This document shows positions 9,290 through 55,348 of a DNA stretch of 64,000 nt, one piece after another. The stretch is taken from the NCBI GenBank assembly GCA_045122895.1, contig JBGVIE010000008.1, positions 7,602-71,601 on the forward strand. The letters run 5' to 3'. A program made the position numbers and the translations under genes. Below the pieces are notes generated by a model, which worked only from the letters and a program-made list of their open reading frames with translations, did no database searches and was not told where the DNA came from. Numbering within the stretch: position 1 is the first letter of the stretch; every line of letters starts with the position of its first letter. The stretch is from Lachnospiraceae bacterium. GTDB taxonomy: Bacteria > Bacillota > Clostridia > Lachnospirales > Lachnospiraceae.

Positions 9290-9341
9290 ATTGTATCTCC
9301 CTCACCATATAATTATATAAAACAATAAAAATCGGAGTCTT

Positions 9342-9452: not shown

Positions 9453-9492
9453 AAATTATGCCCTTGTGAACATCACTTATTGTCACAAGGGC
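9450..9492 (-). terminator. rho-independent terminator of nadE
   Basis: 10-bp stem: 9460-9469 (gcccttgtga) pairs with 9483-9492 (tcacaagggc). On the minus strand it is followed by a U-run (complement of aaaaa at 9451-9455). Confidence 0.6.
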
Positions 9493-9498
9493 CTGTAA

Positions 9499-14729: not shown

Positions 14730-15614
14730 TTATAAAATTCCGTATTCTTTCATTGCTTTCTTCAAAACTTCCTGATTAGCTTCTTCCATTGTTGTAAGTG
14801 GCATTCTAAGTCCACCAACCCCCATACCCATCAGGTTAAGAGCTGCCTTTACAGGAATCGGATTAACTTCGCAGAATAATGCTTCACAAAGTGGCAATGC
14901 TTCCAACTGAAGTTCAAGACTCTTTTTTACATCTCCCTCAAGATATGAAGCCACGATATTGTGTGTCTGCTCCGGCGCAACATTTGATAATACTGAAATA
15001 ACTCCTTTTCCACCAAGTGACAAAACAGGTACTATCTGATCATCGTTACCTGAATATATATCAAGTTTGCCTTTTGTAAGGCTTACAAGTTTAGCAACCT
15101 GCGAAATATTGCCACTTGCTTCTTTGATAGCAACAATATTCTCACATGTATCTGCGAGCTTAGCTGCTGTTGTAGGAAGGATGTTGCATCCTGTTCTGCT
15201 TGGAACGTTATATAAAATAATTGGAACTTTAACACTGTTAGCAATTGCACTAAAGTGAGCAATAAGTCCGTTCTGTGTAGCTTTGTTGTAATATGGTGTT
15301 ACCAAAAGCAAACCATCTACTCCGTATTTTTCAGCTTCTGTTGAAAGGTAGATTGCTGTATCTGTACAGTTCGAACCAGTTCCTGCTACAACAGGAATTC
15401 TTCCTGCTACTTTATCTACTGCATATTTGATGCATTCCAGATGTTCTTCATGTGTAAGAGTTGAAGATTCACCTGTTGTACCACAAATAATGATACAATC
15501 TGTCTTATTGGCAATCTGGAACTCAATGAGTTCACCAAGCTTTTCAAAATTAACTGTTCCATCTGCATTCATTGGTGTAACTATCGCAACACCTGCACCT
15601 GTAAAAATCGACAT
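14730..15614 (-). CDS. dapA: 4-hydroxy-tetrahydrodipicolinate synthase
   Basis: GAGVAIVTPM, GTTGES, and IVAIKEASG containing the Schiff-base Lys. Start set at ATG 15614 (MSIFTG), 8 nt after GGAGG. Confidence 0.95.
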   Translation of the reverse strand: MSIFTGAGVAIVTPMNADGTVNFEKLGELIEFQIANKTDCIIICGTTGESSTLTHEEHLECIKYAVDKVAGRIPVVAGTGSNCTDTAIYLSTEAEKYGVDGLLLVTPYYNKATQNGLIAHFSAIANSVKVPIILYNVPSRTGCNILPTTAAKLADTCENIVAIKEASGNISQVAKLVSLTKGKLDIYSGNDDQIVPVLSLGGKGVISVLSNVAPEQTHNIVASYLEGDVKKSLELQLEALPLCEALFCEVNPIPVKAALNLMGMGVGGLRMPLTTMEEANQEVLKKAMKEYGIL

Positions 15615-15649
15615 ATAAAATTCCTCCATTCATATTTAGTCTCGTATTA

Positions 15650-15878
15650 TAACAAGAAAAGGACTGTTCAAATGAACAGCCCTCAAAGAATCTACATTAA
15701 TATATCATTCTCTAAGTAGCCCTCCATCTGATGATGACAGTTGCATAACTGTTAATTATGCACCCAAGATTACTCTATCAGGTTGAATAATCTTTCGGCG
15801 TATCCCCCTTTCATCTGTCATCATCTATTCCTGAAATATCAAACAGATTACTATTGTTCAACGCAACCTCTACTTGTT
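15650..15878 (-). promoter_or_regulatory. lysine riboswitch (L-box) with intrinsic terminator, leader of dapA-dapB
   Basis: The minus strand reads GTAGAGGTTGCG...AAAGGGGGATACGCCGAAAG...CTGTCATCATCAGATGGAGGGCTAC, matching conserved L-box blocks. This is followed by hairpin gggctgttca/tgaacagtcc (15661-15682) and UUUUCUUGUU. Confidence 0.85.
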
Positions 15879-15888
15879 ATTTAAATTC

Positions 15889-36002: not shown

Positions 36003-37496
36003 TTATTCTTCTATTTTTCTGGCTGTCAAATCAGCTAAGTAATTTCTGTATTTCTCCAAATCAGTATCTGTTACAGTCTCTATTTTGCTAAGATTCTCAA
36101 TAAGCTTTGTTATAGCTGTAATTCCGCCCTTCTTGCACTTCTCCGCACTTTCAGGCTTTTCGACAACTGTACAATCATATAGCTTAATGTAGGCATTACA
36201 TAACTTATCAGCCGCATCTAAATAATTTATCTTCTCATAATCATATACAAATACAAGATTTAACTCATCTATTGCCTCAAGCCATTTATCCCTTGAATTT
36301 GCCGCAAAATATTTTACCGACGCACTGCTGTATGCATTTTCTGCCGCTTTAGTAAAAGACTCTTCTTTAAGAGTTTTATACATATTATTAAAAGTCTCTG
36401 ATAAACTGTTTTCTTCGTCTATTGTAGACAAAGCCTCTGCACACTTAATATAATCACCTTTATTATACTCGTCTAACGCCTTTAGTACGTTATCATAAGC
36501 ATCCAAAACAGCATCATTTGCGTTATTGGCATCTTTTAACTGACTCTCAATATCCGACTTCTCACCATTAAGTGAATCTATCTGTCGCTGTTTATCCTCT
36601 GCATCTGCAACCACTTCATCGTATTTCGCATTCAGCTGCTTCATCTCAGCATTATGGTCAGCCGTCACTCTCTTAACCTTTGTAGGCGTTATTAAAAAAA
36701 ATGCAGCAGCAGCACCTATTACAAGGCCAATCAGAATATTGACAACCGTTGTTGACGCCTTACTTGCGTCATTATAAGAATTATGGGGTATTATCACGTC
36801 AAATCCACTAAGTTGCTCCTTACCTCCTGCATTTTTCTCTTCAGGAGGTGTAAGAATATTAGTCGTCTTATCAAGTACCTCTTCTATCTCCTTTTGATAC
36901 ATCTTACTTAACGGATTATTTGCATCCACCTTAAGTGCCTTCTTTATCGCTCTCTTAGCTTTTTCATACTGATTATTGTGCATATATAAAAGAGCTAACA
37001 GCTGATGTCCCTTAACTAAGTTAGGATTGACATTAAGCACCTTCTTAAGCTGTATAACTGCAAGGTCATAACTTCCCTGCTCAGCATAACCAAGTGCAAT
37101 ATTGAATTTCTTAATAGTCTGATTTATTGTATCCAACTTATTTGGGTTAGATTGTAAGGTATTAAGATAAGTATCTGCCAGATTCTTCTCCGGCATAATA
37201 TTCTTGCTTATTACCCACTCTGCCATAGCCTGTACTACTTCGCCCATCTCAAAATATACAAGACCAAGTAAATTACGAGCCTTTATATTATGTTTGTTAA
37301 ACTTAACACTTCGTCTAAGCAAATCTACCGCGCCTGACAAATCTCTTTGTTTAGCTTTCATAAGCGCGCTGTTATAGTAAGTATTAGACATCCTTACTAT
37401 CTTCTTATATTCCTTAACGTCCACTCCACAGCTTGTACAGAAATCGTTCTCAGAAAGGACGTTGCCACAATTATAGCATCTCATGTAAAACACCAA
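36003..37496 (-). CDS. zinc-ribbon / TPR / single-TM / extracytoplasmic helical-domain protein
   Basis: N-terminal CxxC..CxxC (RCYNCGN...CTSCG). TPR repeats from about aa 40 to 200. TM segment VVNILIGLVIGAAAAFFLI. Coiled-coil-rich C-half. The start codon is ambiguous (TTG 37496, GTG 37493 or ATG 37484). Confidence 0.75.
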   Translation of the reverse strand: MVFYMRCYNCGNVLSENDFCTSCGVDVKEYKKIVRMSNTYYNSALMKAKQRDLSGAVDLLRRSVKFNKHNIKARNLLGLVYFEMGEVVQAMAEWVISKNIMPEKNLADTYLNTLQSNPNKLDTINQTIKKFNIALGYAEQGSYDLAVIQLKKVLNVNPNLVKGHQLLALLYMHNNQYEKAKRAIKKALKVDANNPLSKMYQKEIEEVLDKTTNILTPPEEKNAGGKEQLSGFDVIIPHNSYNDASKASTTVVNILIGLVIGAAAAFFLITPTKVKRVTADHNAEMKQLNAKYDEVVADAEDKQRQIDSLNGEKSDIESQLKDANNANDAVLDAYDNVLKALDEYNKGDYIKCAEALSTIDEENSLSETFNNMYKTLKEESFTKAAENAYSSASVKYFAANSRDKWLEAIDELNLVFVYDYEKINYLDAADKLCNAYIKLYDCTVVEKPESAEKCKKGGITAITKLIENLSKIETVTDTDLEKYRNYLADLTARKIEE

Positions 37497-41639: not shown

Positions 41640-41681
41640 GTTCATTTCTCCTTTTTCTGCTATAAAAAACACTTATTCTAA

Positions 41682-41710
41682 AATATAGTTTTTTTGCTAA
41701 TATTTGTCAA
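41682..41710 (-). promoter_or_regulatory. sigma-A-type promoter for valS-folC
   Basis: On the minus strand: TTGACA (complement of 41705-41710), 17-nt spacer, TATATT (complement of 41682-41687). The -35 lies 8 nt after the upstream stop codon, and the leader is only about 40 nt. Confidence 0.55.
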
Positions 41711-41717
41711 GTCTTGT

Positions 41718-42905
41718 TTAGTAACTTTCCACTACTTCCTGTATCTCTTTTGCATAATCAGGATACTTTAAAAGCAGCTTCTTTATGTTATTTTTGCTTC
41801 TGTCTATCACATCACTATTATACTCAATATTATTTGTAAGTGCGTTTCTCCTTCTGATGAGTTCATCCCTGATTCTCTTCAATTCATTCGAATCAACGAT
41901 TGCATAAGCCTGATTCACCCAGATTTCCGAGTCATTCAGATTATAATTTGAAAGTTCATTAACAAGTTCTTCCTCCGCTTCGTATAATTTGTCCGAAGCC
42001 TTGTGGTATACCTCCTGTTCTTTTTTCACTTTCAAATACTGACCCCATATTTTGTTAAGTTCATATGAATTCTGTACCCCGAATTTTTCATACATATAGT
42101 CAATTCGTGATTTGACATTCACATATCTCAACTTATACTTGTTAATAAGATTTATTGCCTTTGCCTGTTTTCTTTCAATAAGGGATATATTTGAAACTGC
42201 TTCGTGATGTACCACAAAAAGAGTAGTCGCAAGCACCGCTGCTATCCCCATAAGCGCATACAGATAACCTGTCACAAATACATCTGTATTAATCTGTACC
42301 AGAAAAATTATCGCAAGTAATGCTATGAAAGCACCTACAGATATTTTGGAAATACCGGACACCATTCTTATTCTGTCCTTCATCTCCCTCTTTTCCTGTT
42401 TGAGCGCAACCTTTTCACCATTTAGATAATGAAGGTCTGTGTACACTGCATGACAATACTCTTCATCCTCTTTTAAATCTTTAAGTACATCCTTTATCTT
42501 ATCTTCGTATTCCTTCATAAGGTCAAACTGCCTGTTAGACATCTTTGACATTGAACCTCCAAATTCTTTTCTGTCCTTTTCAAGTACCAGTACTTTCTTT
42601 GCAAGATGGAGAATTTTCTGAAAACAGTTATCCGGTAACGACTCTATCATCTGAACATCAGACAGATAGTCACTTACCGCCTGAAATTCAATTTTTGTAT
42701 CCTCGATACGCTTAGCCGATTCCTGCATAATCTCACATTGGTTAATTGTGTACTGCACGACCTGTTCTTTACCGGTAAATGAAACCTTATCTACTTCTCC
42801 AATTTCACTTTCGCTTTCTTTTTTTTCTTTGTAGAGGTCACCGTATTTTTGTTCAAATTCTAAATCATCATTTTTTCTTTTACTTAGCCATTTAAACCAT
42901 TTCAT
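41718..42905 (-). CDS. coiled-coil / 2-TM hairpin / coiled-coil membrane protein, unknown function (4th gene of the unknown operon)
   Basis: 395 aa. Charged heptad-like N- and C-halves flank ISVGAFIALLAIIFLVQI and GYLYALMGIAAVLATTLFVV. 14-nt overlap with the upstream gene. Confidence 0.8.
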   Translation of the reverse strand: MKWFKWLSKRKNDDLEFEQKYGDLYKEKKESESEIGEVDKVSFTGKEQVVQYTINQCEIMQESAKRIEDTKIEFQAVSDYLSDVQMIESLPDNCFQKILHLAKKVLVLEKDRKEFGGSMSKMSNRQFDLMKEYEDKIKDVLKDLKEDEEYCHAVYTDLHYLNGEKVALKQEKREMKDRIRMVSGISKISVGAFIALLAIIFLVQINTDVFVTGYLYALMGIAAVLATTLFVVHHEAVSNISLIERKQAKAINLINKYKLRYVNVKSRIDYMYEKFGVQNSYELNKIWGQYLKVKKEQEVYHKASDKLYEAEEELVNELSNYNLNDSEIWVNQAYAIVDSNELKRIRDELIRRRNALTNNIEYNSDVIDRSKNNIKKLLLKYPDYAKEIQEVVESY

Positions 42906-43725
42906 TTCTGTACTCGTCTTTCCACTTATCTATTATCTTATGAATATCTTCATAATAATCGTCTAAGTTGTGCTTACCATCATATACAAGCGTCTCGCAT
43001 ATCTCATCATATTCAGGCTGTGACATAACACTTTCTCTATAACTTTTTAGCTCTTCGCCCACCAGGTCAAGCACTTCATCACTAACCTTATACTTTAATG
43101 TATCTTCTAACAAATCCTTTTCGTTAGAACTTAGCAAATCAATTTTGATGATTGATTTTACTATGTTTTCATCCTGACATAATTCATAGGCTTTTCTATA
43201 ATATATAACTGCCTCACTGTATTCCATTCTTCTTGCATATATGCACGCCAGATTGTTACATACCTTCCCATAAAAAATATTAGTAAGGGTTTTATCTCTC
43301 TGCATCGTCAGAATCTCTTTGTAAATCTCAAATGCTCTTCCCAGTTTTCCGGCCTCCATAAAAAGGTCTGCTCTCACTTTAAGCCTCTCAGTTACCGACT
43401 TTGTTCCAATCATCCTAAGAGTATTTACAAGTTCTTCAACTTCTTCCTCATTGTAATACCCTGAAGCATTAACTATTGTCATCATAAGCTCCGGAAATGT
43501 TCCTCTATGGTCTGTCAAATATTTAATTTTTCCTGCCAGTCCTTCCATTTCAAGCTGGGTATGTATAAATTCTATCAATTCCTCATCAAAGAATTCTTTT
43601 CCAACCATAAAAATATTGTTGTGCAGATAATATGCCAGTTCCTCAATTGAATATATATCAATATCCGCACTCTCAATATGAAATGGAAGCTTAGCCTCTT
43701 TTCCACATAATAATAATCCACTCAT
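42892..43725 (-). CDS. TPR-like helical protein, unknown function (3rd gene)
   Basis: 277 aa. TPR-like segments (GRAFEIYKEIL, VCNNLACIYARRMEYSEAVIYYRKAYEL). Its start lies 1 nt after the upstream stop. Confidence 0.8.
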   Translation of the reverse strand: MSGLLLCGKEAKLPFHIESADIDIYSIEELAYYLHNNIFMVGKEFFDEELIEFIHTQLEMEGLAGKIKYLTDHRGTFPELMMTIVNASGYYNEEEVEELVNTLRMIGTKSVTERLKVRADLFMEAGKLGRAFEIYKEILTMQRDKTLTNIFYGKVCNNLACIYARRMEYSEAVIYYRKAYELCQDENIVKSIIKIDLLSSNEKDLLEDTLKYKVSDEVLDLVGEELKSYRESVMSQPEYDEICETLVYDGKHNLDDYYEDIHKIIDKWKDEYRNEMV

Positions 43726-43726
43726 A

Positions 43727-45010
43727 CTATATCCATTCCTCAGTATTGATGTTCATTCGAAGTATTTTGTCTGATGCTTCAAAGAAATCACCAAATCCTA
43801 AATCTCTTACAATTATACTCAACTGCTTCTCACTTTTATACGCAACTGTAATCTCTACCTTTGTCGTCTTATTTGGTCTGTCAGGAAATTCTGATAAATC
43901 AAGCTTTATGTCTCTTTCCACCTTGTTGACCGGATTTATTACCTTGACATTGATTTCTTTAGTATCATCAAGAATACATTTCACAATTGCACCTGCTTCA
44001 TACCAGTTAACTCCGGCTTTTGACAGACAAAGCATAACTGTCTTATCTCTGTGGAGTACATTTATCCCGATTGTCACAAAAGTCCTTCCTGTACACATAA
44101 ACTGATAACAATCATTGTTTATAATCGAAAGTTTTTCCATTATGGCATAACAGGCACCTTTTACAAACAAATTATGTCCCTTAAATACTCTTCGCTTATT
44201 GCATAAATAGGGAAGGGAATTCTTTATGAAATCCTCATCATAGAATCCCATACCGGTAAGGAATACTGCTGACACTATGTGAGATTTGAAATCATTTTGA
44301 ACAATAGTTAACAATCTCTCATCAGCTTTTATTCTTCCCTCTTCATTTTTAAGATCTTCGTAAGAGAATTCATCTGACAAATCATATTCTGAAACGTCTA
44401 AGACTTCCGGATTTCTTCCTCTCACCCTGCTAACTTTTCTGTATATAAAGTGATCCTTCGAAAAATCAAACAAGGCAACATCATTTGTCCATATCTCTTT
44501 TTTCTGATTAGTAATAAAATAAAGCAGTGCCTCAGAGTGACCAACAACTCTTATCTTATCCTCTTCTATACCAAGTTCCTTAACAGAGCTGTAAATATTA
44601 TCTATAAGAACCCTGTCCGGGTACTCGATTGTAATACCTATTGCTTCGATACATGATATATTGCATCCTCTTCTTATCTGTTCAAATAAAAGCCTGAAAT
44701 AAATATCTAATATTTCCTTTGCAGTATATTCCCTGCCCTCTATTGTGTCACCTTTGTCAAGAAGAACTTTTTTGAGGATATCATCAACTGCTGTCCCCTC
44801 ATGCCGTCCTGCACGAAGCATGGCCTCATCACCTAAAAGCCACTCATCCTTATCCTTCCATTTGAACAACACAGTAGGAATAAGATATTTTTGTTCATTA
44901 TGTATTGTACTCATAGAATCAGGTTCACTCATACCTGTTACATAATAGCTTATCTGGGTGTAATCCGCTGCCAAATCCACCCCCACTACTATTCCAATAC
45001 TACTCTCCAT
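43727..45010 (-). CDS. Hsp70/actin-fold protein with degenerate nucleotide-binding motifs (2nd gene)
   Basis: 427 aa. Blocks collinear with DnaK: VGVDLAADYTQ, IPTVLF, GHSEALLYF, ALFDFSKDHF, VFLTGMGFY, and a C-terminal beta region KVEITVAYKSEKQLSIIVRDLG. Confidence 0.8.
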   Translation of the reverse strand: MESSIGIVVGVDLAADYTQISYYVTGMSEPDSMSTIHNEQKYLIPTVLFKWKDKDEWLLGDEAMLRAGRHEGTAVDDILKKVLLDKGDTIEGREYTAKEILDIYFRLLFEQIRRGCNISCIEAIGITIEYPDRVLIDNIYSSVKELGIEEDKIRVVGHSEALLYFITNQKKEIWTNDVALFDFSKDHFIYRKVSRVRGRNPEVLDVSEYDLSDEFSYEDLKNEEGRIKADERLLTIVQNDFKSHIVSAVFLTGMGFYDEDFIKNSLPYLCNKRRVFKGHNLFVKGACYAIMEKLSIINNDCYQFMCTGRTFVTIGINVLHRDKTVMLCLSKAGVNWYEAGAIVKCILDDTKEINVKVINPVNKVERDIKLDLSEFPDRPNKTTKVEITVAYKSEKQLSIIVRDLGFGDFFEASDKILRMNINTEEWI

Positions 45011-45030
45011 TCTGTCCTCATTTCCGAAAA

Positions 45031-48000
45031 CTACAAAATATCAAATGCTTTTTTTGCAACATTCAAATTAATATAGTATTCTTTAGTTAATTCTCTAACT
45101 GTCGTCTCTTCCTTCATATCCATACATCTAAGGATATCATTAATCATTCCGTATGCGGTATTATTGACACACACAATATCATCGCCAAGATAATAATTCT
45201 CGCTTTCCGTAATATTAGTTCCTCTTAAGTTCTCTTCAGTAATATAATACCTGATATTTTCACCATAAAAAATCGGAAGTTCTTTAGTATATATCCCCTT
45301 AAATTTTGATTCCATCTGACTTCTTTCGTAATGATCACTGACTGCTCCTTTTTCAGTATTGTAGTGAATATACACCTCACAGTCAGGCGATGTTCTATAT
45401 TCAATAACTGCTTTCATAGCTACAGAATCCGGAATTTCAAACCACTTTCCAAATCTTTTGAAAAATTCAAAATTAATGTTTTTATCAGACATATCCACCA
45501 GAAGTTTTCTGCTAAGGTCAATCTGTTTTTTCTGCGGTTCCTTTAAGTCACATACATATCTGAGATACGCTATTTTGCACAGTTCATGAAGAATATCATG
45601 AGACTTAGCCTGGATTAGAAGTTCTCTTTCTAACTGGATAAAAAACTTATCATTAACCGGTTTTTCTTTTACAAAATAGTTGTATGATACATAAAAATAA
45701 TATGCTTTCTTAACAGTCTCATTTGCACCTTTTTTCTCATAAGAATCAAATATATCAACAAGATATCCTGTATGGGCTCTGCTAAACAGAATCTGTGCGA
45801 TAAGTCTCTCCTCTAAATCTCTGCTCTCTACAGAGTAATCAATTCCTGCCTTCCATATCTCAATCATATCCTTCGTAATACCATTATAATTCTCACAAAG
45901 ATACGAAAGCGTGCTCTCGTTGTACTTGCCCTTAACAAAAGCAAAGGCTGCCAATTCTGTTAAAAGCTCATCACTTTCTGAGCTTACTAACACTAAATAT
46001 CTGCTTACAAGCTTTAATAATTTTCCGGGTGCCATCTGTACATATCCGTAGTTCTTAACTGCTTCATACGACTCTTCATATAGTCCCCGCATAATGAGAA
46101 GCTCTATCACCTTTATTCTTGATTCTAAATCAATCTCATCTAAATCAATGCTCTTAAGATAATCGTCAAGCTCATCACCATCATAATTCTCATAGTAATA
46201 ATCAATAATATCCTTCATAATACTCTTTTTAAACGAATATCTGAACCTGTCCATCTGCATAATATTCTTAAAAGTATTAATCGTGTTCCCTGAGGAGTTG
46301 TGGTATTTTAAGAACTGCTCCGTTATCGCAGCCACATAATAAATATCATCATCACATTTGCCCTCACACATACTCATAAGAGAATTGTTATCGAGTAATT
46401 TTCTGATTGCAAAATTAACTGTTTTAAAATGCCTGTTACCTTCCATATCTTCAGCCATAACAATTGCATCCTCTGTAAAAATCTCTATATTGGCAATCCC
46501 ATCTCTGAGGACATAAACCTTTTCGCTTGCAATCTCTTTATGTATTACAATCACCTTACACATATTCTTATTGTCACAGATCAGCTCATGAGTAGCAAGA
46601 ATATGTGGCAGATTCTTTGCTATTTCATCCTTTATTACAGAACCCTGCAAAAACTCTCTGTACACGATGGCAAGATTTCTGTTCATATTGCCTCTTGATA
46701 AATTATCAAGCGCAAATCTCTCCATATTAGCCTTGTAATTCTTGTAAATATTTGGAATCTTCTCTTTGTTATGAATTATGTTAGCATATAAATAGCTTTC
46801 TCTGTGAAAAAGAAGATTACCATTATACACAAAATACATATATATAATATTCGGAAGAAGCTCCATACTTCTATCTGAAATAGTGAACATATAATACTCA
46901 TAAAGTCTTGTGAGATTAAGTTCCCTCTTTACACCTTCTGCGTACCATTTAAAATATTTACTGCCTGTGATGTTACTTCGAATCAAAACACTGCATATAG
47001 CGTTAAGTATCTCTTTTTTGCCAAACATATCATAAAAGTATGTCAGCACCTTAAACATTATCGGTCTGAAATTCTTCTCCAGCAAAGCAAGCTCTGCTAC
47101 ATGAATTGCAAGCTTCTCCTCGATAATCTCATACTTACATCCAAACATAAGCACCTGAAGTTCAAAATCATTTATAACTCTTAACAACTGTGGCTGTTTG
47201 TTAAACACATTTATCGCCTCATAATACATAAGCGGACTGTAACAGCCTTTGTTAAACTGCTCTTTTATTCTAGCCACCTTAAGACTTACATTGCTCTCAT
47301 ACGAATTATCAAGATACAACAATATCCATAATATTCTCCAGCTATCATATCCGCCATCATAATAGGATTTTATCTTAAGGAAAATATCATTAGTCATTAC
47401 ATGGTCTCTTCTTTGGAGAGTTCTAACATACAGGTAATAACAATAAAGCTCCAGATTATCATCCACATTATCAAGTATATTATTTGCAACACTGTCAAGC
47501 AGCCACGCAGCTTCTGCCTCTTTATTCCTTGTCAAATATATCTGAGCCTGAATAAGCTTTAAGAAATCATAACTGTCATCAAACCCTCTTGCCCTCTCAA
47601 TTATACTAAGAGACTTCTCTGACCACACATCAGCAGTATATCTTCTGCATCTGAAATCGATATACATCTTCATAAGTCTTCTGATACACTTTTTTACTTC
47701 CCTTTTCTCAACACTATAATCATGTGTGTTATCAACTGATATTTGCAAGGTAAGCGACTGGAAAACTGTCTGGAAAATAATTGTTCCATAGTTCATCCCG
47801 TCATGTAGTCTGTCAGTGTCTATCAGATACTTATATTCATAGTTACTTCCTGCAAAATCGTCAGAAGTAATTCTCGTCTTACAATTAGTAATAAAATCGC
47901 CACGCACATCAACCTTAATGTCAACATATCCGGCAACATCCTTTGATATCACCACAACGTCTGAATTAGGCTGTGTAAGATTCACATACTCTCTGTTGCT

Positions 48001-48591
48001 GTCTGAAACCGATAAAGTAACATTGTTTTTTTTCTTAATTCCCACTAAGAATTCTTCGAGTGCCTGTTTCTTATCTTTTGAATTGATTACTCCATCATAA
48101 AGTGCCTGACCATACAAGTCATCTCTTAAGAAAATATCCTTAAATTCCGGCGAAATAAAAATCTTTATCGCTTCCTCGTAGTCATTTTTCATAAGTCCCG
48201 CAAACTGGAATAAGTCGTTTATTTCTCCAACTGAAACATTTATCTTTGGACACACAACTTTAAAGGAGTACCTTAGTATTCCTTCTCCTCCATCGCTTAC
48301 CACACAGAACTTACCATCAACTTTATCGCCTTCATTTAAAACTTCTGCATCTACCTCATACCTGATTACAATATCACTGCCAACAAACTGTCTGTTAATA
48401 ATTCTTACTGAGCGATTAGTAGTGTATACTACTCCTTTTATTTTTCTTAAATCGTCCGTTTTAATATTAAAGCTTCCCTCATACAGACTTCCTGCCGCGA
48501 CTTCGGCTTCAATCTCACTCTCTGTAAAGTCGATAACTGAGCCGTTATATTCTATTATACCTCTTGATAGTTTTCCTACCAGTTCCTTCAT
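45031..48591 (-). CDS. 1186-aa protein: N-terminal beta-sandwich modules, long helical-repeat body, C-terminal beta domain; unknown function (1st gene)
   Basis: Uninterrupted ORF starting 5 nt after the rarA stop. No signal peptide, TM segment, P-loop or metal-protease motif seen. Confidence 0.85.
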   Translation of the reverse strand: MKELVGKLSRGIIEYNGSVIDFTESEIEAEVAAGSLYEGSFNIKTDDLRKIKGVVYTTNRSVRIINRQFVGSDIVIRYEVDAEVLNEGDKVDGKFCVVSDGGEGILRYSFKVVCPKINVSVGEINDLFQFAGLMKNDYEEAIKIFISPEFKDIFLRDDLYGQALYDGVINSKDKKQALEEFLVGIKKKNNVTLSVSDSNREYVNLTQPNSDVVVISKDVAGYVDIKVDVRGDFITNCKTRITSDDFAGSNYEYKYLIDTDRLHDGMNYGTIIFQTVFQSLTLQISVDNTHDYSVEKREVKKCIRRLMKMYIDFRCRRYTADVWSEKSLSIIERARGFDDSYDFLKLIQAQIYLTRNKEAEAAWLLDSVANNILDNVDDNLELYCYYLYVRTLQRRDHVMTNDIFLKIKSYYDGGYDSWRILWILLYLDNSYESNVSLKVARIKEQFNKGCYSPLMYYEAINVFNKQPQLLRVINDFELQVLMFGCKYEIIEEKLAIHVAELALLEKNFRPIMFKVLTYFYDMFGKKEILNAICSVLIRSNITGSKYFKWYAEGVKRELNLTRLYEYYMFTISDRSMELLPNIIYMYFVYNGNLLFHRESYLYANIIHNKEKIPNIYKNYKANMERFALDNLSRGNMNRNLAIVYREFLQGSVIKDEIAKNLPHILATHELICDNKNMCKVIVIHKEIASEKVYVLRDGIANIEIFTEDAIVMAEDMEGNRHFKTVNFAIRKLLDNNSLMSMCEGKCDDDIYYVAAITEQFLKYHNSSGNTINTFKNIMQMDRFRYSFKKSIMKDIIDYYYENYDGDELDDYLKSIDLDEIDLESRIKVIELLIMRGLYEESYEAVKNYGYVQMAPGKLLKLVSRYLVLVSSESDELLTELAAFAFVKGKYNESTLSYLCENYNGITKDMIEIWKAGIDYSVESRDLEERLIAQILFSRAHTGYLVDIFDSYEKKGANETVKKAYYFYVSYNYFVKEKPVNDKFFIQLERELLIQAKSHDILHELCKIAYLRYVCDLKEPQKKQIDLSRKLLVDMSDKNINFEFFKRFGKWFEIPDSVAMKAVIEYRTSPDCEVYIHYNTEKGAVSDHYERSQMESKFKGIYTKELPIFYGENIRYYITEENLRGTNITESENYYLGDDIVCVNNTAYGMINDILRCMDMKEETTVRELTKEYYINLNVAKKAFDIL

Positions 48592-48596
48592 CCCGG

Positions 48597-49958
48597 TTAT
48601 ACCTCTTCATCTTTATTAATATATTTGAAATACTCTTTAATCTCTCTCTCATATCCATTATCCGTAGGAGTATAAAATATTCTGTCTTTAAGCTCGTCCG
48701 GAAGATATTGCTGTTTTACATAGTGCTTATCATAATCATGTGCATATTTATATCCGACACCGTGGTTTAATTCCTCTGCTCCCTTATACGAACCAACCTT
48801 AAGATATGATGGTATATCATAAGTTTTCTCTTTCTCTACAACTCTCAGTGCCTCGTTAATGGCATTGTAAGCTGAATTGCTCTTTGGTGCGCTTGCCACA
48901 TATATCGCCGCCTGTGCAAGTGGTATTCTTGCCTCCGGCATACCAAGCTGATGAACAGCCTGTGCACACGCTACTGCCACCTTCAATGCCAGTGGATCTG
49001 CAAGCCCTACATCTTCTGCAGCACATATCATTATTCGTCTCGCAATGAATGTAACACTTTCCCCCGCATACAACATTCTTGCCAGATAATAAACTGCTGC
49101 CTGGGGATCTGAACCTCGCATACTCTTTATAAAAGCTGAAATAGTATCATAATGATTGTCACCATCTTTGTCATACAATACATTTCTTCTCTGAATGCAT
49201 TCAGATGCCACTTCTGTAGTAATCCTTATCTTCCCATCTTCACCTGGAGCAGTAGTGAGCACACCAAGCTCAACTGCGTTGAGTGCACATCTGGCATCAC
49301 CGTTTGATGCATCCGCAAGAAAATTAACCGCATCGTCATCGATTACTGCACCATAAGCACCAAGACCCTTTTTCTCATCTGTCACCGCTCTTATAATCAA
49401 TTTCTTAATATCATCTGCATCCAGCGGCTTTAATTCAAACACTGCCGACCTTGATATCAAAGCCCTGTTAACTTCAAAATATGGATTCTCTGTTGTAGCC
49501 CCAATTAACACAACAGTCCCATCCTCAACAAACGGGAGTAAATAATCCTGCTGCGCCTTATTAAATCTATGTATCTCATCCACGAACAGAATAGTCTTTC
49601 TTCCATACATAGAATAATTGTCCTTTGCCTTTGCAACCACCTCTTCCATATCCTTCTTGCCCGAGACTGTTGCATTAAGCTGTGTAAATTCACCCTTAGT
49701 AGTCGCAGCAATCACCTTGGCAAGTGTGGTCTTACCGGTTCCCGGAGGTCCGAAGAAAATAATAGACTTAAATTTGTCTGCTTTTATCGCCCTGTATAAA
49801 AGCTTATCCCTGCCTATTATGTGCTCCTGCCCAACCACCTCCTCAAGTGTTTCCGGTCTCATTCTTGAAGCAAGTGGCGACTCCTTTTGTGTGTTAGTTG
49901 TACGCATATATTCAAACAAATCCATAGCTAAATAATCTCGCCTTTCATCAAATCGCAT
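48597..49958 (-). CDS. rarA: replication-associated recombination protein A (RarA/MgsA AAA+ ATPase)
   Basis: FFGPPGTGKTTLA, ILFVDEIHRFNKAQQD and GATTENP, plus the MgsA C-terminal domain (GSDPQAAVYYLARML). Confidence 0.93.
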   Translation of the reverse strand: MRFDERRDYLAMDLFEYMRTTNTQKESPLASRMRPETLEEVVGQEHIIGRDKLLYRAIKADKFKSIIFFGPPGTGKTTLAKVIAATTKGEFTQLNATVSGKKDMEEVVAKAKDNYSMYGRKTILFVDEIHRFNKAQQDYLLPFVEDGTVVLIGATTENPYFEVNRALISRSAVFELKPLDADDIKKLIIRAVTDEKKGLGAYGAVIDDDAVNFLADASNGDARCALNAVELGVLTTAPGEDGKIRITTEVASECIQRRNVLYDKDGDNHYDTISAFIKSMRGSDPQAAVYYLARMLYAGESVTFIARRIMICAAEDVGLADPLALKVAVACAQAVHQLGMPEARIPLAQAAIYVASAPKSNSAYNAINEALRVVEKEKTYDIPSYLKVGSYKGAEELNHGVGYKYAHDYDKHYVKQQYLPDELKDRIFYTPTDNGYEREIKEYFKYINKDEEV

Positions 49959-50006
49959 AATTATTGATATTATACCACAGTCATACGATTATTTCAGTAA
50001 CTATTT

Positions 50007-50150: not shown

Positions 50151-50921
50151 TTATTTTATTAATCTAAGTCCAAGTTTATCTGAATATTCGCTAAAAATGT
50201 TTTTCTCAATATGATACAGTCTGCTTATAAAATCAAGTGTAAATACTTCTTCTATCCCGGCGAACTTAATCACTTCTCCTTTGTCCACACAAATCACCTT
50301 ATCCGCAATAATTCTTACAAGCTCAAGCTCATGAAGTGACATCACAACTGTCATTCCACTATCTGCCATATCCTTTAAAATCTCTAATATCTCTATTTTG
50401 TGCTTTATGTCAAGAAAAGAAGTTGGCTCATCAAGGACTATTATGTCCGGTTTCTGGCAAATAGCCATTGCCAGCTTAATCTTTTGCTTCTGTCCGTCAC
50501 TTATCCTTGAAAAATCTTCATTCTTTAAATCATATGCGTTTACCATTTTTAATGCTTTTTCTATCTCTGCTCTATCCTCCATACCAAGTGTACCGAATTT
50601 GTTTGTATATGGATATCTCCCCTGACTTACAATATCGTAACAGCTTGTCATATCTACACTTATTCTGTCAGTGGACACATACGCCATAGTCTTTGCAAGC
50701 TCTGTCTGATGAATACTATCAATATCCGCATCAAGAATTTTAATATCACCACTTATTCTTTTCAACTGCTTTGTAATGCTCTTTAAAATAGTTGATTTAC
50801 CGGCTCCGTTAGGACCGATAAGCGCTACTATTTCACCTTTTTGTATATCGATATTTATATTCTTTATTATTGTTTTTTTTCCATATCCTACTTCTAAATC
50901 AGACGTGTTAATTCTAATCAT
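50151..50921 (-). CDS. ABC transporter ATP-binding protein (FecE/BtuD-type)
   Basis: Walker A GPNGAGKST, signature SDGQKQ, Walker B IIVLDEPTSFLD. Confidence 0.9.
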   Translation of the reverse strand: MIRINTSDLEVGYGKKTIIKNINIDIQKGEIVALIGPNGAGKSTILKSITKQLKRISGDIKILDADIDSIHQTELAKTMAYVSTDRISVDMTSCYDIVSQGRYPYTNKFGTLGMEDRAEIEKALKMVNAYDLKNEDFSRISDGQKQKIKLAMAICQKPDIIVLDEPTSFLDIKHKIEILEILKDMADSGMTVVMSLHELELVRIIADKVICVDKGEVIKFAGIEEVFTLDFISRLYHIEKNIFSEYSDKLGLRLIK

Positions 50922-50927
50922 TTTTCC

Positions 50928-51929
50928 CTACTTAACTCCTGAATTTCTCTTTATCATAATAACAATAACAATCGGTGCACCAAAAACTGCTGTAATTGTA
51001 CTTATACTCATCTCTGTCGGTGCAAACACTGTTCTTGCTATCAAATCACACATAAGACAAAACGATGCACCTGCCAGAAATGACGCCGGTATAATTGTTG
51101 ACGCTTTTGATGTCTTAAACATATTTCTCACAATATGAGGAACCGCAATTCCCACAAAGGACACAGGTCCTGCAAATGCTGTAACTGTGGATGACAATAT
51201 ACTTGATAATACCACAAGCATAACTCTGAGAAGTGAAACATTTACTCCAAGACTTTTGGCATAACTTTCCCCAAGCTGGTATGCTCCTATCGGCTTTGAA
51301 ATCATCATAGACAGGATAACTCCCAATATGACAGCTACAGCTATAACTTTTACATTGTCCATTGTAATCCCCGAAAAACTTCCAAGTGACCAGTTGTGAA
51401 GATTTACAATATTTGAATCATCTGCAAAGGTTACAAGGAAATCTGTTATCGCATTGCAGATATATCCAATCATAACACCACAGATAATTAACGTCGAGAC
51501 TGTGGTGACTTTTCCTGATATAATCAAAATAAACAAAACTGATATCATAGAGCCAATAAACGCTGCAATAATCATAGTTGCACTGTCAACCTTAAGTCCG
51601 TTATCAATAAAATATATCATAACGAAAGCCACTGCCATCTTTGCTCCGTGGGATATACCAAGCACAAATGGACTTGCAATGGGATTTGCAAAGAATGTCT
51701 GTAGCAAATATCCTGAAACAGACAATGCTCCGCCAAGCAAAATGGCAGCAAGTGCTCTTGGAAGACGTATATTCATAACGATTTTTCTATGTACGCCCTC
51801 CTCGCCTTTAAAGATAATATCAACAAGTTCACTGACGCTTATCTCAACGCTGCCAAGAGAAATATTCAAAACAAAAAGCATTATTAATAGCCCTGTCAAA
51901 AAGACATACCATATTTTCTTATTTTTCAT
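50928..51929 (-). CDS. FecCD/BtuC-family ABC permease
   Basis: IRLPRALAAILLGGALSVSGYLLQTFFANPIASPFVLGIS is the hallmark FecCD segment. About 9-10 TM helices. Confidence 0.9.
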   Translation of the reverse strand: MKNKKIWYVFLTGLLIMLFVLNISLGSVEISVSELVDIIFKGEEGVHRKIVMNIRLPRALAAILLGGALSVSGYLLQTFFANPIASPFVLGISHGAKMAVAFVMIYFIDNGLKVDSATMIIAAFIGSMISVLFILIISGKVTTVSTLIICGVMIGYICNAITDFLVTFADDSNIVNLHNWSLGSFSGITMDNVKVIAVAVILGVILSMMISKPIGAYQLGESYAKSLGVNVSLLRVMLVVLSSILSSTVTAFAGPVSFVGIAVPHIVRNMFKTSKASTIIPASFLAGASFCLMCDLIARTVFAPTEMSISTITAVFGAPIVIVIMIKRNSGVK

Positions 51930-53067
51930 CCTTATCCTTTACTCTAAACAAATATCTAAAATCATTATTTCCAGAAATCATATTATGCATATCAAGTATC
52001 ATATTAACAGTTCCTGTAGTCTGCTGAAACATATTTTTTGAAGTGCAGAAAACATTGTTATTCTTTACGGCAACTGAATCTTTCATCTGCGGACATTTCG
52101 TCAAAAGCTCTTCCACTGAATTTAACTCACCGTCAATTGAACTGTTATATATAAGATAATCTGCATTCATAGCTTTTTCAACAAATTCTTCCATCTGGAT
52201 ATTAATTGTTGACAATGCATTTTCATTCGTCAGGTCATCAAACACATATTCTGCACCTGCAGTTTCTATCATTTTAGCAATATAATCACCTGATTTTCTG
52301 ACATTAACCGCACCATTTGAGGTTACAAAAAAATATGCCACCTTAGGTCTTTCTCCCGAACTAATGCTTTCCTGAATCTCCTTAAGACTTTCCAATTGGT
52401 TTTCAAAAAATGCTTCTGCCTCTTTCTCCCTGCCAAAGAGTACACCATAAAACTTTATCCATTCAACCCTTCCTAACGGATGACCCTCCATACTTGATAA
52501 TTCAACAATAACAGGAATTCCCACCTCGTTTAGTTTATCCTTTACTCCCGGATTATGGTAAATCATAGTATTTTGAACAGCAATATCACAGTTTTTTTCA
52601 AGTAAAAGTTCAAAATCAGGCTCATTATACTTTCCTGCATAAAACATTTCACCATTATCAACCGCCTTCTTCGCTTTCTCTATACACAATTCATCATACT
52701 TAGTTCCGGTGAATCTGACTTTATCAGTCACACCAAGCTCACAAACCAAATCCATTGCTGATGATGACACCATATACATATTCTCAATCGGCTGTTTTAC
52801 TACCACTATATCATCATCACATTCAGGTACATCCGCTCCCTGCGGCACAACTAATATATCATCACCTTTATCTACATGAATAACTCTATATCCATCTCTA
52901 TAATAATCAACGCTAAATGCTGTTGCGTATTTCAAATCCATAGAGCCTGTCTTTTCAAGCTCTTTTATCGAAACCATATCAGTATTATTTTTTTTGCACC
53001 CGAAAAGTGCCATACAAATCATAACTATTAAAAATGTAAATATAATTTTTCTCATTCTCATATCCAT
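51919..53067 (-). CDS. ABC substrate-binding lipoprotein (BtuF/FhuD-type)
   Basis: Lipobox MALFGCKK. Class III periplasmic-binding-protein size and layout. In an operon with the FecCD permease. Confidence 0.8.
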   Translation of the reverse strand: MDMRMRKIIFTFLIVMICMALFGCKKNNTDMVSIKELEKTGSMDLKYATAFSVDYYRDGYRVIHVDKGDDILVVPQGADVPECDDDIVVVKQPIENMYMVSSSAMDLVCELGVTDKVRFTGTKYDELCIEKAKKAVDNGEMFYAGKYNEPDFELLLEKNCDIAVQNTMIYHNPGVKDKLNEVGIPVIVELSSMEGHPLGRVEWIKFYGVLFGREKEAEAFFENQLESLKEIQESISSGERPKVAYFFVTSNGAVNVRKSGDYIAKMIETAGAEYVFDDLTNENALSTINIQMEEFVEKAMNADYLIYNSSIDGELNSVEELLTKCPQMKDSVAVKNNNVFCTSKNMFQQTTGTVNMILDMHNMISGNNDFRYLFRVKDKDEK

Positions 53068-53122
53068 ATCCTATTCAAAAAAGCTGCCACAGTCATATAT
53101 GCGACAGCTTTTATTGTTACAT

Positions 53123-53983
53123 TTATTTTATTGTTGTTGAATCAAAGAATAATGTATATTCTATTTCATGTGGTTCACTCATTGCAACTGTATCTGCAAT
53201 AACAGGCATTCTGTAATCAAAACCAATTACAGGAATCTCAAATGTTGAGTCTCCACCTTCGTTAAGATTATTGTACTTAACATCATCAACCTTCATATAG
53301 TCATAATTCTTACTGCTCCACACTATAGTAGCAGTTGTCTTACCATCTTCTACCTTAAGCTTTGCAGGAGAAGATATGCCGGCTTTACCCGAGCCACCTT
53401 CAAGACTTACCTCGACTGTATATTCGCCATCCTTAAGACTTGAAATCTCTGCTACATTAATTACACCATCTGCATACGCATCTGTATCTAATGACTGTGC
53501 CTTAAAACAGAGCTTTCTATCATACCACTGCTCTTTCTTTGCACTAAATGCAGCTACATCTATAGCTTTATCAAGTGCTTCGACAGGTACTGTAAAAGTA
53601 TGTTCTTTGTTTTCATTTTCTACCGGAGTAATGAATGAAGCTTCATCTGCTTTTTCTGCCTCTTCACTTGTTCCCATATATATGTACTTATATCCGGTTC
53701 CACCCATTGTCATAACGGCACTCATCTGTCCAACCTTAACAGTGAGTGTACAGGCAGTGATATTAAACATTGATGAGCTTGATGCAACATCTATGGAATA
53801 TTCACCATCTTTAAGTTTTGAAGCTTCAATCGGTTCCATACCGGCTTCTGTCACTTCCTCCTGCTTTACAGTTGCTTCTTCTGACGTAGTTGTTTCACTC
53901 TTCTTTGAATCACTACTGTTACAGGCTACCATCATCATCACACTTATGCATACGAGTGAAAGTAAATATATTTTCTTCTTCAT
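53123..53983 (-). CDS. lipoprotein with two homologous ~110-aa beta-rich domains, unknown function
   Basis: Lipobox MMVACNSS. Internal duplication: LKDGEYSIDVASSSSMF..CTLTVKVGQMSAVMTM..YKYIYMG versus LKDGEYTVEVSLEGGSG..AKLKVEDGKTTATIVW..YDYMKVD. Confidence 0.7.
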   Translation of the reverse strand: MKKKIYLLSLVCISVMMMVACNSSDSKKSETTTSEEATVKQEEVTEAGMEPIEASKLKDGEYSIDVASSSSMFNITACTLTVKVGQMSAVMTMGGTGYKYIYMGTSEEAEKADEASFITPVENENKEHTFTVPVEALDKAIDVAAFSAKKEQWYDRKLCFKAQSLDTDAYADGVINVAEISSLKDGEYTVEVSLEGGSGKAGISSPAKLKVEDGKTTATIVWSSKNYDYMKVDDVKYNNLNEGGDSTFEIPVIGFDYRMPVIADTVAMSEPHEIEYTLFFDSTTIK

Positions 53984-53997
53984 TCTAGTAATCCTCT

Positions 53998-54987
53998 CTA
54001 TTTGATTTTTTCAATTGCAGACCTTGTGTGTTCTACAAAAATATCTCTAATCGCCTCTATTTCACCAAGTCCCTTTGTAATACATTCCACTTCATAACCT
54101 TCTGCTTCAAATGTCTTCTTCCATGTTCCTTCTTCATCACCTGCCATATCATTATTGGCATGGTCACCTGCCACTATCATAAGAGGCATAAGAACAACTT
54201 TCTTGTATCCTCCGGCTTTTACACCTGCCACTACATCATCAAGAGTAGGAGCAGCTTCTACAGTTCCTATGAAATAATTCTCATAACCGGCATTTGTTAA
54301 TGTATCCTGCATTTTAGGATATACCTGGTTAGAATCGGCAGTAGTACCATGTCCCATAAAACATATAGCTGTTTCTCCATTATCGTATTCCTTTGTGGCA
54401 TCCACAATAGCTTCCATCACTTTTCTAAAGTCATCATCTGATGTAAGAAGCGGTTCACCTATTACCACCTTCTCAAAGGCATCTGAATAATTAGCAATTT
54501 CATCTACTACATCCTTATACTCAAGACCGTTCATAAGATGTGTAGGCTGTACTACAAGCTTCTTAACTCCATTATTGCTGGCTCTGTCAAGTGCTTCCTT
54601 TACGTTGTCAATTGTTACATTATCCCTTCTCTTTACATGGTCAATTATTATCTGGCTAGTAAATCCTCTTCTAACTGAGTAATCTTTTCCAAACTCATCT
54701 TCGAGTCTCTGTTCAATTGCACCGATAGTTAATCTTCTGTTATCATTATAACTGGTTCCAAAAGATACTACCAACAGTTCGTTTTCTCCCATTCCATCTT
54801 CATTCCTTACTTTGTCCAGTGAAGCATCACCTGTGTTGTAATTTTCTTCCTCTTCCTGATCCTCATTAAGGTTAACTGCCTGTGTGGTGGTTGTGGTGTT
54901 TTCTTTCTTATCATCACTCTTTCCACATGACACGGCTGATGCTGCCATACATACGCACATCAATGTTACAAATAATTTCTTTCTCAT
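53998..54987 (-). CDS. cbiK: sirohydrochlorin cobaltochelatase CbiK homologue with lipoprotein signal peptide (exported)
   Basis: Start set at MRKKLFVTLMCVCMAASAVSCGK (ATG 54987) after AGGAGG. Core motifs: LLVVSFGTSY, HLMNGLEY, FMGHG, LMPLMIVAGDHANNDMAGD, GLGEIEAIRDIFVEH. The track's longer ORF runs back through the riboswitch. Confidence 0.85.
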   Translation of the reverse strand: MRKKLFVTLMCVCMAASAVSCGKSDDKKENTTTTTQAVNLNEDQEEEENYNTGDASLDKVRNEDGMGENELLVVSFGTSYNDNRRLTIGAIEQRLEDEFGKDYSVRRGFTSQIIIDHVKRRDNVTIDNVKEALDRASNNGVKKLVVQPTHLMNGLEYKDVVDEIANYSDAFEKVVIGEPLLTSDDDFRKVMEAIVDATKEYDNGETAICFMGHGTTADSNQVYPKMQDTLTNAGYENYFIGTVEAAPTLDDVVAGVKAGGYKKVVLMPLMIVAGDHANNDMAGDEEGTWKKTFEAEGYEVECITKGLGEIEAIRDIFVEHTRSAIEKIK

Positions 54988-55049
54988 TTTTTTACCTCCT
55001 ACTATTATGTGAACAAACCTGTCGAACCACAAAAAGAAATAAAAAATGC

Positions 55050-55342
55050 ACAAAGAAAAAAGGTCAGTATACCTGGAACGATAAACTGACATAAAACAGT
55101 ACGACCAATTCCTCGTGATCTGGATTCTTAATCCGGTACCAACAAAGTGGCAGGTTTCCTGACTTAAAGATCTTCGCATCCATCCGTCTTCCCAAATATC
55201 AATTCAGTGACTGTGCATACACACGTGGATATCAGCTCCCTTATCACAGTGACGAGATCGTACAGGTCTTTCACCTGTTTCCCTTTTAACCATTATATAC
55301 AAAGATATTTTGCACTAATGGCACCACCTGTTTATTCAACTG
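55050..55342 (-). promoter_or_regulatory. cobalamin riboswitch with intrinsic terminator
   Basis: The minus strand reads GGTGGTGCC..AAAAGGGAAACAGGTGAAAG..CACTG, then the B12 box AGTCAGGAAACCTGCCAC (complement of 55146-55165). The terminator hairpin is gtcagttta/tatactgac (55063-55090) followed by CUUUUUUCUUUG. Confidence 0.85.
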
Positions 55343-55348
55343 GCGTGA

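Follow-up and report, generated by a model that had tools for sequence, protein, structure and literature searches.

The 64,000-nucleotide stretch of a Lachnospiraceae bacterium genome analysed here (GenBank assembly GCA_045122895.1, contig JBGVIE010000008.1, positions 7,602 to 71,601; hereafter the window) carries, between rarA and valS, a cluster of four minus-strand genes, A to D. The first three constitute a conserved, obligate unit, and the second product, B, is by its predicted fold a minimal, lid-less relative of Hsp70. We tentatively read the cluster as a vertically inherited housekeeping assembly in which B would be a non-cycling Hsp70-like subunit at the centre of a stable scaffold complex, a reading to which we give somewhat less than an even chance. 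Its observed part consists of the folds, the degenerate motifs, the gene order, the fusions between B and C, and the core-genome context.

The four reading frames are tightly packed: the gaps measure 20 nucleotides (nt) for A-B and 1 nt for B-C, C and D overlap by 14 nt, and A itself lies 5 nt from rarA. Independent gene calls for GCA_045133115.1 (NCBI) and two Logan assemblies gave the identical four products. This reproduces in full the layout and junctions described in an earlier note on the same DNA, and short gaps recur in other genomes, which argues against chance adjacency. In an alignment-based scan with one genome per species, at least 498 species-representative genomes were found to encode a relative of B (a single-sequence query returned no loci, its peptide patterns being too specific), and the counts that follow are drawn from the best 80 loci of these genomes. 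Of the 80, 79 have A before B and 78 have C after B, with order and strand always kept; the few that do not are cut by a contig end. Median gaps are 24 nt for A-B (n=79), 17 nt for B-C (n=77), 14 nt for C-D (n=33) and 29 nt for rarA-A (n=55), and 13 of the B-C junctions show a 4-nt overlap of the ATGA type. The conserved, obligate unit is therefore the triad A-B-C. The earlier note had proposed checking conservation of the whole quartet: the triad proved constant, whereas D stands directly after C in only 33 of the 80 loci. Bar a few labelled 'Clostridiales' or 'Clostridium' and one contig of an Agathobaculum metagenome-assembled genome (MAG), these loci bear Lachnospiraceae-type labels, by which the module is largely confined to Lachnospiraceae. 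A profile search of 1.84 billion cluster representatives returned 1638 B-family representatives at E <= 1e-3.

The fold of B was examined on an AlphaFold2 model computed from an alignment of 40 sequences, with a predicted local distance difference test score (pLDDT) of 91.3 and a predicted TM-score (pTM) of 0.89. Foldseek returned 403 matches in the PDB at E <= 0.001, the best being DnaK (7kru_A, E = 1.8e-20). All 50 of the matches listed belong to the Hsp70 family (DnaK, BiP, Hsc70, Hsp110, and Ssz1 in 6sr6, 7x3k and 5mb9), two ciliary central-pair chains being counted among them as Hsp70s from their length and placement. The alignments extend over about 510-550 columns against lid-truncated Hsp70s and cover both the ATPase and the beta substrate-binding domains. 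B superposes better on docked, ATP-type DnaK (query TM-score (TMq) 0.61-0.63, and 0.62-0.63 for 7kru/7krv; root-mean-square deviation (rmsd) about 7 A) than on undocked, ADP-type DnaK (2v7y, 2kho; TMq 0.47-0.48, rmsd 16-23 A), which fits a rigid two-domain unit. The earlier note had given B an Hsp70/actin topology with destroyed nucleotide-binding signatures; the fold and the degenerate motifs were borne out, and the description fell short in that the model is more than an actin fold, being a two-domain Hsp70 with a beta substrate-binding domain.

At the sequence level, none of the 40 B family members matched Pfam HSP70 (PF00012) even at E <= 10, and phmmer of B against PDB sequences gave no match. 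Both the comparison of the B family profile with a DnaK chain (best E 0.15) and the hhalign comparison with E. coli DnaK (E 0.05) were weak. The pairing obtained by hhalign is weak yet colinear, setting DnaK GIDLGTTNS against B GVDLAADYT, TPSII against IPTVL, NEPTAA against GH-SEA and DLGGGTFD against FDFSKDHF. In the beta domain, a weak colinear hidden Markov model (HMM) match sets DnaK IPPAPRGIPQIEV...DKGTG against B FPxRPNKTTRVEI...DLGFG. In the same hhalign comparison, the DnaK catalytic and phosphate signatures are reduced in B to two aspartates, D12 and D182, which correspond to metal ligands: K70 of DnaK aligns to a non-conserved Asp, E171 to an invariant His (H158), and the Gly/Thr loops of phosphate-1 and phosphate-2 are replaced. 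In the model, a single helix (217-241) separates the adenosine-motif strand (246-252) from the phosphate-2 hairpins, where the equivalent stretch of DnaK, lobe IIB, has about 83 residues; lobe IIB of B appears to be reduced to about one helix. The chain stops at residue 427, five residues past its last beta strand, so that there is no helical lid or C-terminal tail, and members of the family are uniformly about 400-450 amino acids (aa) long unless fused to C, against about 600-640 aa for canonical Hsp70.

Conservation in B is highest in two sets of segments, one lining the former nucleotide cleft (KRRVFKGxNLFVKGA, QKKExWxNDVxxFDF and LTGxGFY) and the other in the beta-domain loops equivalent to the Hsp70 peptide cleft (GRT, SKAGxNWYEAGA, FPxRPNKTTR and DLGFGDFF). 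A motif search found no Walker A, HExxH or HPD motif in A, B, C or D, and, within the cluster, no DnaJ or GrpE match was obtained with Pfam for A, C or D. As B is placed in the family by neither its sequence nor its catalytic motifs, and has neither a lid nor a J-domain or GrpE partner in its cluster, we name it Hsp70-like and not a family member. B ends in EEWI (residues 424-427, 43730-43741), and the family consensus there is IEExL, not EEVD. B homologues share an acidic-hydrophobic tail, [IV]x[IV][ED][ED][YWIL][LIF], which resembles and also differs from the EEVD read by tetratricopeptide repeat (TPR) co-chaperones.

The link between B and C is documented by gene fusion. Among the top 150 family representatives, 10 proteins of 703-727 aa, each from a separate 50%-identity cluster (P0245, P0321, P0344, P0360, P0365, P0378, P0380, P0383, P0386 and P0387), carry C at the C-terminus of B, and BLASTP of C against their residues ~440-725 gave E-values of 1e-14 to 7e-47. 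Such fusions lie on many independent contigs, including the complete genome of Clostridium sp. KNHs205 (WP_033164862.1) and Candidatus Scybalocola MAGs, and indicate that B and C act together physically. One divergent locus (L084), whose B is 27% identical to that of the window, has the order A, B-C fusion (8001-10154), D homologue.

C itself is TPR-like, as the earlier note had said, at the level of the family profile, the single sequence remaining below the Pfam gathering threshold (best TPR match 25.6 bits against 27.9, E 1e-5). Over residues ~110-190 the profile matched consensus TPR proteins with E-values down to 6e-46. Among natural TPR proteins it matched Hop (4e-8), CHIP (4e-7), TOM70 and FKBP51 (co-chaperones at E 4e-8 to 3e-6), and generic TPR proteins score as well as the co-chaperones do. 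Outside the repeats, C has an N-terminal domain with a conserved LxLC-x6-PY...IYSxEELxYY pattern, and its C-terminal end reads WKxEYR. In the first clamp helix the family consensus, ERxKxRADxL, judged by eye, has Asp at the expected Asn. Recognition of B by C through an EEVD/carboxylate clamp was considered and is not supported by the clamp positions: C has two recognisable TPR motifs only, the first position of the clamp is apparently Asp, and EEVD is lacking in B. The idea that C is a duplicated piece of A was rejected (hhalign probability 0.4%).

The largest product, A, is predicted to be a non-enzymatic scaffold or platform made of immunoglobulin (Ig)-like domains and TPR-like solenoids. 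Its AlphaFold2 model has a mean pLDDT of 85.8 and a pTM of 0.53, as expected for a chain that appears to be multidomain. Two Ig-like sandwiches (residues 20-124 and 193-288) enclose a helical insert (127-184) in the model, and the most conserved segment lies in the first solenoid (residues 413-486; conservation 0.74 against 0.51-0.62 elsewhere). Foldseek related the Ig part to ciliary central-pair chains (7sqc, 7som, 9ijj), which we take to be hydin-like ASH/PapD-like Ig domains, to the SPD-2 domain of CEP192, to 2qsv and to RbmA. These alignments span about 280-310 columns, and their placement at the N-terminus is deduced from this length and from the domain type of the targets, query coordinates not being reported. 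The solenoid part gave long alignments with TPR superhelix scaffolds (Ski3, Ctr9, Naa15, IFT-A and UNC-45). All these matches have E-values of 1e-6 to 1e-4, TM-scores of 0.1-0.2 over the query and identities of 5-12%. No enzyme match or catalytic motif was found in A by Foldseek, Pfam or motif search, in agreement with the earlier note's description of a giant helical-repeat protein devoid of catalytic motifs.

D varies most. Its hydrophobic segments, separated by a 7-residue loop and recurring at an unchanged position in most of the 33 homologues encoded after C, are flanked by 6 and 3 Lys + Arg residues against none in the loop. By the positive-inside rule, this distribution predicts that both long helical arms are cytoplasmic, and the two-helix transmembrane hairpin proposed earlier agrees with it and with the Kyte-Doolittle profile. 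D evolves fast, a word-indexed search having recovered only 11 relatives. The homologue at L084 is nonetheless detectable (28% identity, E 2e-43), and its presence in so divergent a locus makes D look ancestral and repeatedly lost or relocated. In 44 of the 80 loci, the D-family HMM found no homologue next to C and none within +/-10 kb. A replacement for D was sought there and rejected, C being followed by unrelated housekeeping genes (shikimate kinase-like, IspF-like, NUDIX-like or YbaK-like open reading frames by sequence inspection) or directly by valS.

A and B belong to families already catalogued in Pfam as DUFs. Residues 124-422 of B match DUF5716_C (PF18980) with 314 bits (E 1e-93; gathering cut-off 34.7), as do all 40 aligned homologues. 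The boundary of this model disagrees with the structural domain border, cutting the ATPase domain and running into the substrate-binding domain, and residues 1-123 (lobe IA/IB, with conserved GxDxxxDYxQ and EPxS motifs) lie under no Pfam model. A is a full-length member on both DUF5717 models, with 1009.8 bits for DUF5717_N (PF18984; E 1.2e-303, residues 1-866) and 286.3 bits for DUF5717 (PF18983; E 3.4e-85, residues 874-1183), the gathering cut-off being 25 in each case. Searches of NCBIfam and of PDB sequences gave nothing meaningful for any of the four proteins, and D had no Pfam, NCBIfam or PDB sequence match. The earlier statement that no characterised family accommodates any of these proteins thus needs amending for A and B, which do fall into Pfam families; it holds in that these families are uncharacterised and that D has no match. 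In the same way, the suggestion of an undescribed system survives as regards function, full-text searches of the available literature having found no functional study of the DUF5716 and DUF5717 families, and does not survive as regards the families of A and B, which are on record. They are taxonomically restricted, very widespread, and functionally unstudied in the literature found.

How these parts might work together can be outlined as follows. A, B and C would form a stable complex, C binding B directly and A supplying a large interaction surface; we infer that A and D take part in it. We likewise infer that B runs no DnaJ/GrpE-driven ATP cycle, and it would serve instead as a rigid, permanently docked adaptor. 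By analogy with the way the lid-less Ssz1 holds Zuo1 in the ribosome-associated complex of eukaryotes, the highly conserved cleft of its beta domain may clamp a fixed segment of C or A, or one dedicated client. In lineages that keep D, D would anchor the complex on the cytoplasmic side of the membrane.

Several points weigh against this proposal. The evidence that lobe IIB is lost comes from a predicted model and from the lengths of segments rather than from structures aligned residue by residue. The resemblance between A and TPR scaffolds is generic. In more than half of the loci C has no D beside it, so membrane tethering cannot be essential to the core function. Finally, D12, D16, H158, E160, N176, D177, D182, T252, G253 and G255 line the nucleotide cleft of B and are invariant or nearly so, which leaves room for a non-canonical nucleotide or ligand site and hence for an active cycle.

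This last point bears on a possible, if doubtful, alternative, in which B is an active specialised chaperone cycling nucleotide through a non-canonical site, with A and C as co-chaperones or client platforms, in the manner of Hop, CHIP or UNC-45 with Hsp70, for one or a few large Lachnospiraceae-specific substrates. The Hsp70 fold of B does keep an intact beta substrate-binding domain, and its nucleotide-cleft region shows strong conservation of a pattern of its own, but the phosphate loops are no longer glycine-rich, other residues stand in place of K70 and E171, and lid and lobe IIB are missing in the model. The C profile does match the TPR domains of Hop, CHIP, TOM70 and FKBP51, but it matches generic TPR proteins equally; the first clamp position is apparently Asp, and the C-terminus of B is acidic-hydrophobic and not EEVD. 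UNC-45 is among the structural matches of A, and in [Clostridium] asparagiforme DSM 15981 (L070, 181-5170) the triad lies directly downstream of clpP-clpX-lon-engB and not of rarA; against this, the cluster has no J-domain or GrpE-like partner and no heat-shock operator upstream. In 65 loci, the window included, the 400 nt preceding rarA or A contained one sporadic CIRCE match only (<= 4 mismatches) and two isolated CtsR-like strings with 3 mismatches each. Regulation by heat shock through HrcA/CtsR was rejected for want of CIRCE or CtsR operators in these regions.

We regard as unlikely that the cluster encodes a morphogenetic scaffold for sporulation, division or envelope growth, that is, a membrane-associated cytoskeletal or landmark assembly, as the earlier note had favoured; no specific support for such a role was obtained. 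The predicted membrane hairpin of D with its long cytoplasmic helical arms would suit it, as would the large Ig-like and solenoid scaffold of A, but D is absent from the vicinity of C in the 44 loci mentioned above. In the window, spoIIAA-spoIIAB-sigF lies about 6 kb downstream, but valS, folC and a TPR gene intervene with their own promoters. The slot upstream of valS holds spoVID-ysxE in B. subtilis, so that the neighbourhood hosts morphogenetic genes in other Firmicutes; on the other hand, the triad is present in genera labelled Butyrivibrio, Lachnospira and Roseburia, which are classically described as non-spore-forming, and Pfam, NCBIfam and PDB searches found no homology to known division or sporulation proteins.

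The upstream side of the cluster raises the very unlikely alternative that A to D are an accessory module of RarA in replication restart or genome maintenance. A position of rarA upstream of the cluster, as pointed out earlier, was found in the window and in 56 of the 80 loci, directly before A, on the same strand and with the short median gap given above, and no terminator separates the two genes; the association is nevertheless lost in whole clades. Enterocloster-type loci have engB/lon upstream instead, and L084 a divergent aminotransferase gene. No nucleic-acid-binding or nuclease domain was found in A to D, and adjacency within one bacterial family can be inherited synteny alone. Taking lon-ysxC...valS-folC, the order in B. 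subtilis, as the ancestral Firmicutes synteny, the cluster seems to occupy a fixed chromosomal slot, which in Bacillus holds hem genes and spoVID-ysxE.

An anti-phage or conflict system on a defence island is effectively refuted: a multi-gene cluster of large proteins that show no clear enzymatic function could suggest one, and atypical NTPase-plus-TPR architectures do occur in some conflict systems, but A, B, C and D have no match in PADLOC-DB at E <= 0.1, the vicinity is free of integrases, transposases and tRNAs, the search for effector-type domains was negative, the composition is that of the flanks, and the position between rarA or engB and valS is kept across many genera.

The core context asserted by the earlier note was confirmed from several sides. 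The G+C content of the cluster is 0.35 against 0.35-0.40 in the flanks, with equal skews, and the window also holds addAB, nadE, typA, a penicillin-binding protein gene, folC, valS and a cobalamin-riboswitch operon, as well as spoIIAA-AB-sigF. The window contains no tRNA and no integrase or transposase was seen near the cluster, flanking repeats not having been searched for explicitly. The plasmid sequence search gave no match for the cluster, and the single IMG/VR match (L085, 58-195, UViG_3300029577_000175) covers 46 residues of B right at the end of a contig of 12.7 kb and most likely represents flanking host DNA included in a prophage call. A mobile or defence origin was rejected on the flat composition, the housekeeping neighbours and the lack of PADLOC, plasmid or tRNA matches.

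As regards transcription, rarA is the probable first gene of the A-B-C-D transcription unit (Table 1). GAGG Shine-Dalgarno-like motifs precede A, B and C. A scan of the region found 9 terminator-like sites against 4.9 +/- 2.3 expected, all inside coding sequence or outside the cluster, and none within any junction, that of rarA and A included. The promoter of valS, which begins 7 nt past the stop of D, ahead of an AGGAGA ribosome-binding site and the ATG start codon of valS, marks the downstream boundary of the cluster and accords with the separate promotion of valS claimed before.

Table 1. Features of the cluster, its products and its borders (positions in the window; residues are those of the protein named).
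Feature	Coordinates	Strand	Description and basis
Gene A	45031-48591	minus	1186 aa, DUF5717 scaffold protein (predicted)
A residues 20-288	47728-48534	minus	Two Ig-like beta-sandwiches with helical insert between; DSSP of AlphaFold2 model
A residues 294-665	46597-47712	minus	First alpha-solenoid; AlphaFold2 secondary structure
A residues 667-1058	45418-46593	minus	Small beta domain (667-731) and second alpha-solenoid (736-1058); AlphaFold2 secondary structure
A residues 1060-1186	45034-45414	minus	C-terminal beta domain (1060-1134) and two terminal helices; AlphaFold2, within DUF5717 match
Gene B	43727-45010	minus	427 aa, DUF5716, lid-less Hsp70-like
B residues 1-~298	44117-45010	minus	Reduced actin-like ATPase domain; hhalign to DnaK and AlphaFold2 model
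B residues ~299-427	43730-44116	minus	Hsp70-type beta substrate-binding domain; all-beta 302-422 in model, Foldseek, weak colinear HMM match
Gene C	42892-43725	minus	277 aa, TPR partner of B
C residues ~110-190	43156-43398	minus	Two TPR motifs; Pfam sub-threshold, family profile
Gene D	41718-42905	minus	395 aa, two-helix membrane anchor (predicted), lineage-variable fourth component
D residues 188-232	42210-42344	minus	Two hydrophobic helices (188-205, 213-232), 7-residue loop; Kyte-Doolittle
rarA/mgsA	48597-49958	minus	453 aa, AAA+ replication-associated ATPase; Pfam MgsA_C 8e-71, AAA_assoc_2, AAA
Promoter candidate of rarA	49969-49997	minus	Sigma-70-like, CTGAAA-17-TATAAT, extended TG; consensus scan 10/12 matches
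Hairpin of preceding operon	50104-50091	minus	Terminator-like, just upstream of rarA promoter candidate
Promoter of valS	41682-41710	minus	Sigma-70-like, TTGACA-17-TATATT; consensus scan 11/12 matches

Some observations concern the surroundings of the cluster. The leader of valS (41640-41717, minus), behind a near-consensus sigma-70 promoter, is only about 40 nt long. Many Firmicutes aminoacyl-tRNA synthetase genes carry a T-box; an Rfam scan of the window found neither a T-box nor any other element upstream of valS, its only matches being two riboswitches, both outside the cluster. One, for cobalamin (105 bits, 55132-55343, minus), heads an operon (50151-55179) that encodes cbiK, a weak NEAT-domain protein and a btuF/C/D-like ATP-binding cassette transporter and that ends at the hairpin 50104-50091; the other, for lysine (115 bits, 15709-15880, minus), lies upstream of the open reading frames 14730-15629 and 13954-14709. 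Immediately upstream of spoIIAA, 36003-37496 (minus) encodes a conserved-looking 497-aa protein with a zinc-ribbon-like CxxC...CxxC N-terminus, TPR repeats, one predicted transmembrane segment and a long C-terminal helical region.

In the gut of humans and animals, Lachnospiraceae count among the most abundant bacterial groups, and at least 498 species-representative genomes carry the module, whose place on the core chromosome is fixed, with no published work found on it. At the least, DUF5716 can be re-annotated as atypical Hsp70-like and DUF5717 as a scaffold of Ig-like domains and TPR-like solenoids. If B is indeed the non-cycling subunit of a stable housekeeping complex, DUF5716 would rank among the natural Hsp70 derivatives that have been pared down furthest, with lid and lobe IIB gone and neither a J protein nor an exchange factor in the cluster. 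It would be hard-wired to a scaffold of 1200 aa and to a TPR partner, with which it is sometimes fused. It would offer the Hsp70 field a natural test case for an ATPase plus beta-domain core outside the canonical cycle, and gut microbiologists a way into a housekeeping complex shared across the family. A bolder proposal, which we consider improbable, is that A-B-C(-D) is an unrecognised bacterial cytoplasmic assembly in which a minimal Hsp70 descendant that needs no J protein organises or remodels, at the membrane, the giant A, whose beta domains and alpha-solenoids recall the architecture of coat and scaffold proteins. Were it true, the Lachnospiraceae as a whole would possess a cell-biological machine for which model bacteria have no characterised counterpart. 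Bacteria would then also provide an example, arisen independently, of an Hsp70 acting as a dedicated structural or remodelling subunit, to be compared with the ribosome-associated complex and the uncoating of clathrin by Hsc70.

Among known systems, B shares with the canonical Hsp70s DnaK, HscA and HscC the succession of an ATPase domain and a beta-sandwich substrate-binding domain, with motif remnants in colinear order. It differs from them in its length, in having no lid or tail, in a lobe IIB that in the model amounts to one helix, in the replacement of catalytic residues and in a cluster that encodes no J-protein or GrpE. For A and B, the Pfam entries DUF5716_C, DUF5717_N and DUF5717, of which they are high-scoring members, carry no function. 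The scaffolds Ski3, Ctr9, Naa15, IFT-A, hydin and the SPD-2 domain of CEP192, which give the best structural matches of A, are non-enzymatic assembly platforms; they belong to eukaryotic TPR/ASH complexes, and neither common descent nor common function is implied. Hop/STIP1, CHIP, TOM70, FKBP51/52 and UNC-45 resemble the pair of C and B in that a TPR protein is associated with an Hsp70-type protein, and the tail of B is acidic-hydrophobic. Their clamp is, however, made of three TPRs with five Lys/Asn/Arg residues, whereas C has two recognisable TPR motifs and reads RAD at the first Lys/Asn position. A further parallel is offered by Ssz1-Zuo1 of the ribosome-associated complex: B and Ssz1, itself among the structural matches of B, are both lid-less Hsp70 relatives with a role thought to be structural, and the stable heterodimer of Ssz1 and Zuo1 is paralleled by the obligate pairing and occasional fusion of B with C. 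The two systems differ in that Ssz1-Zuo1 is eukaryotic, the partner of Ssz1 is a J-domain protein and Ssz1 still binds ATP, whereas the partners of B are TPR and solenoid proteins.

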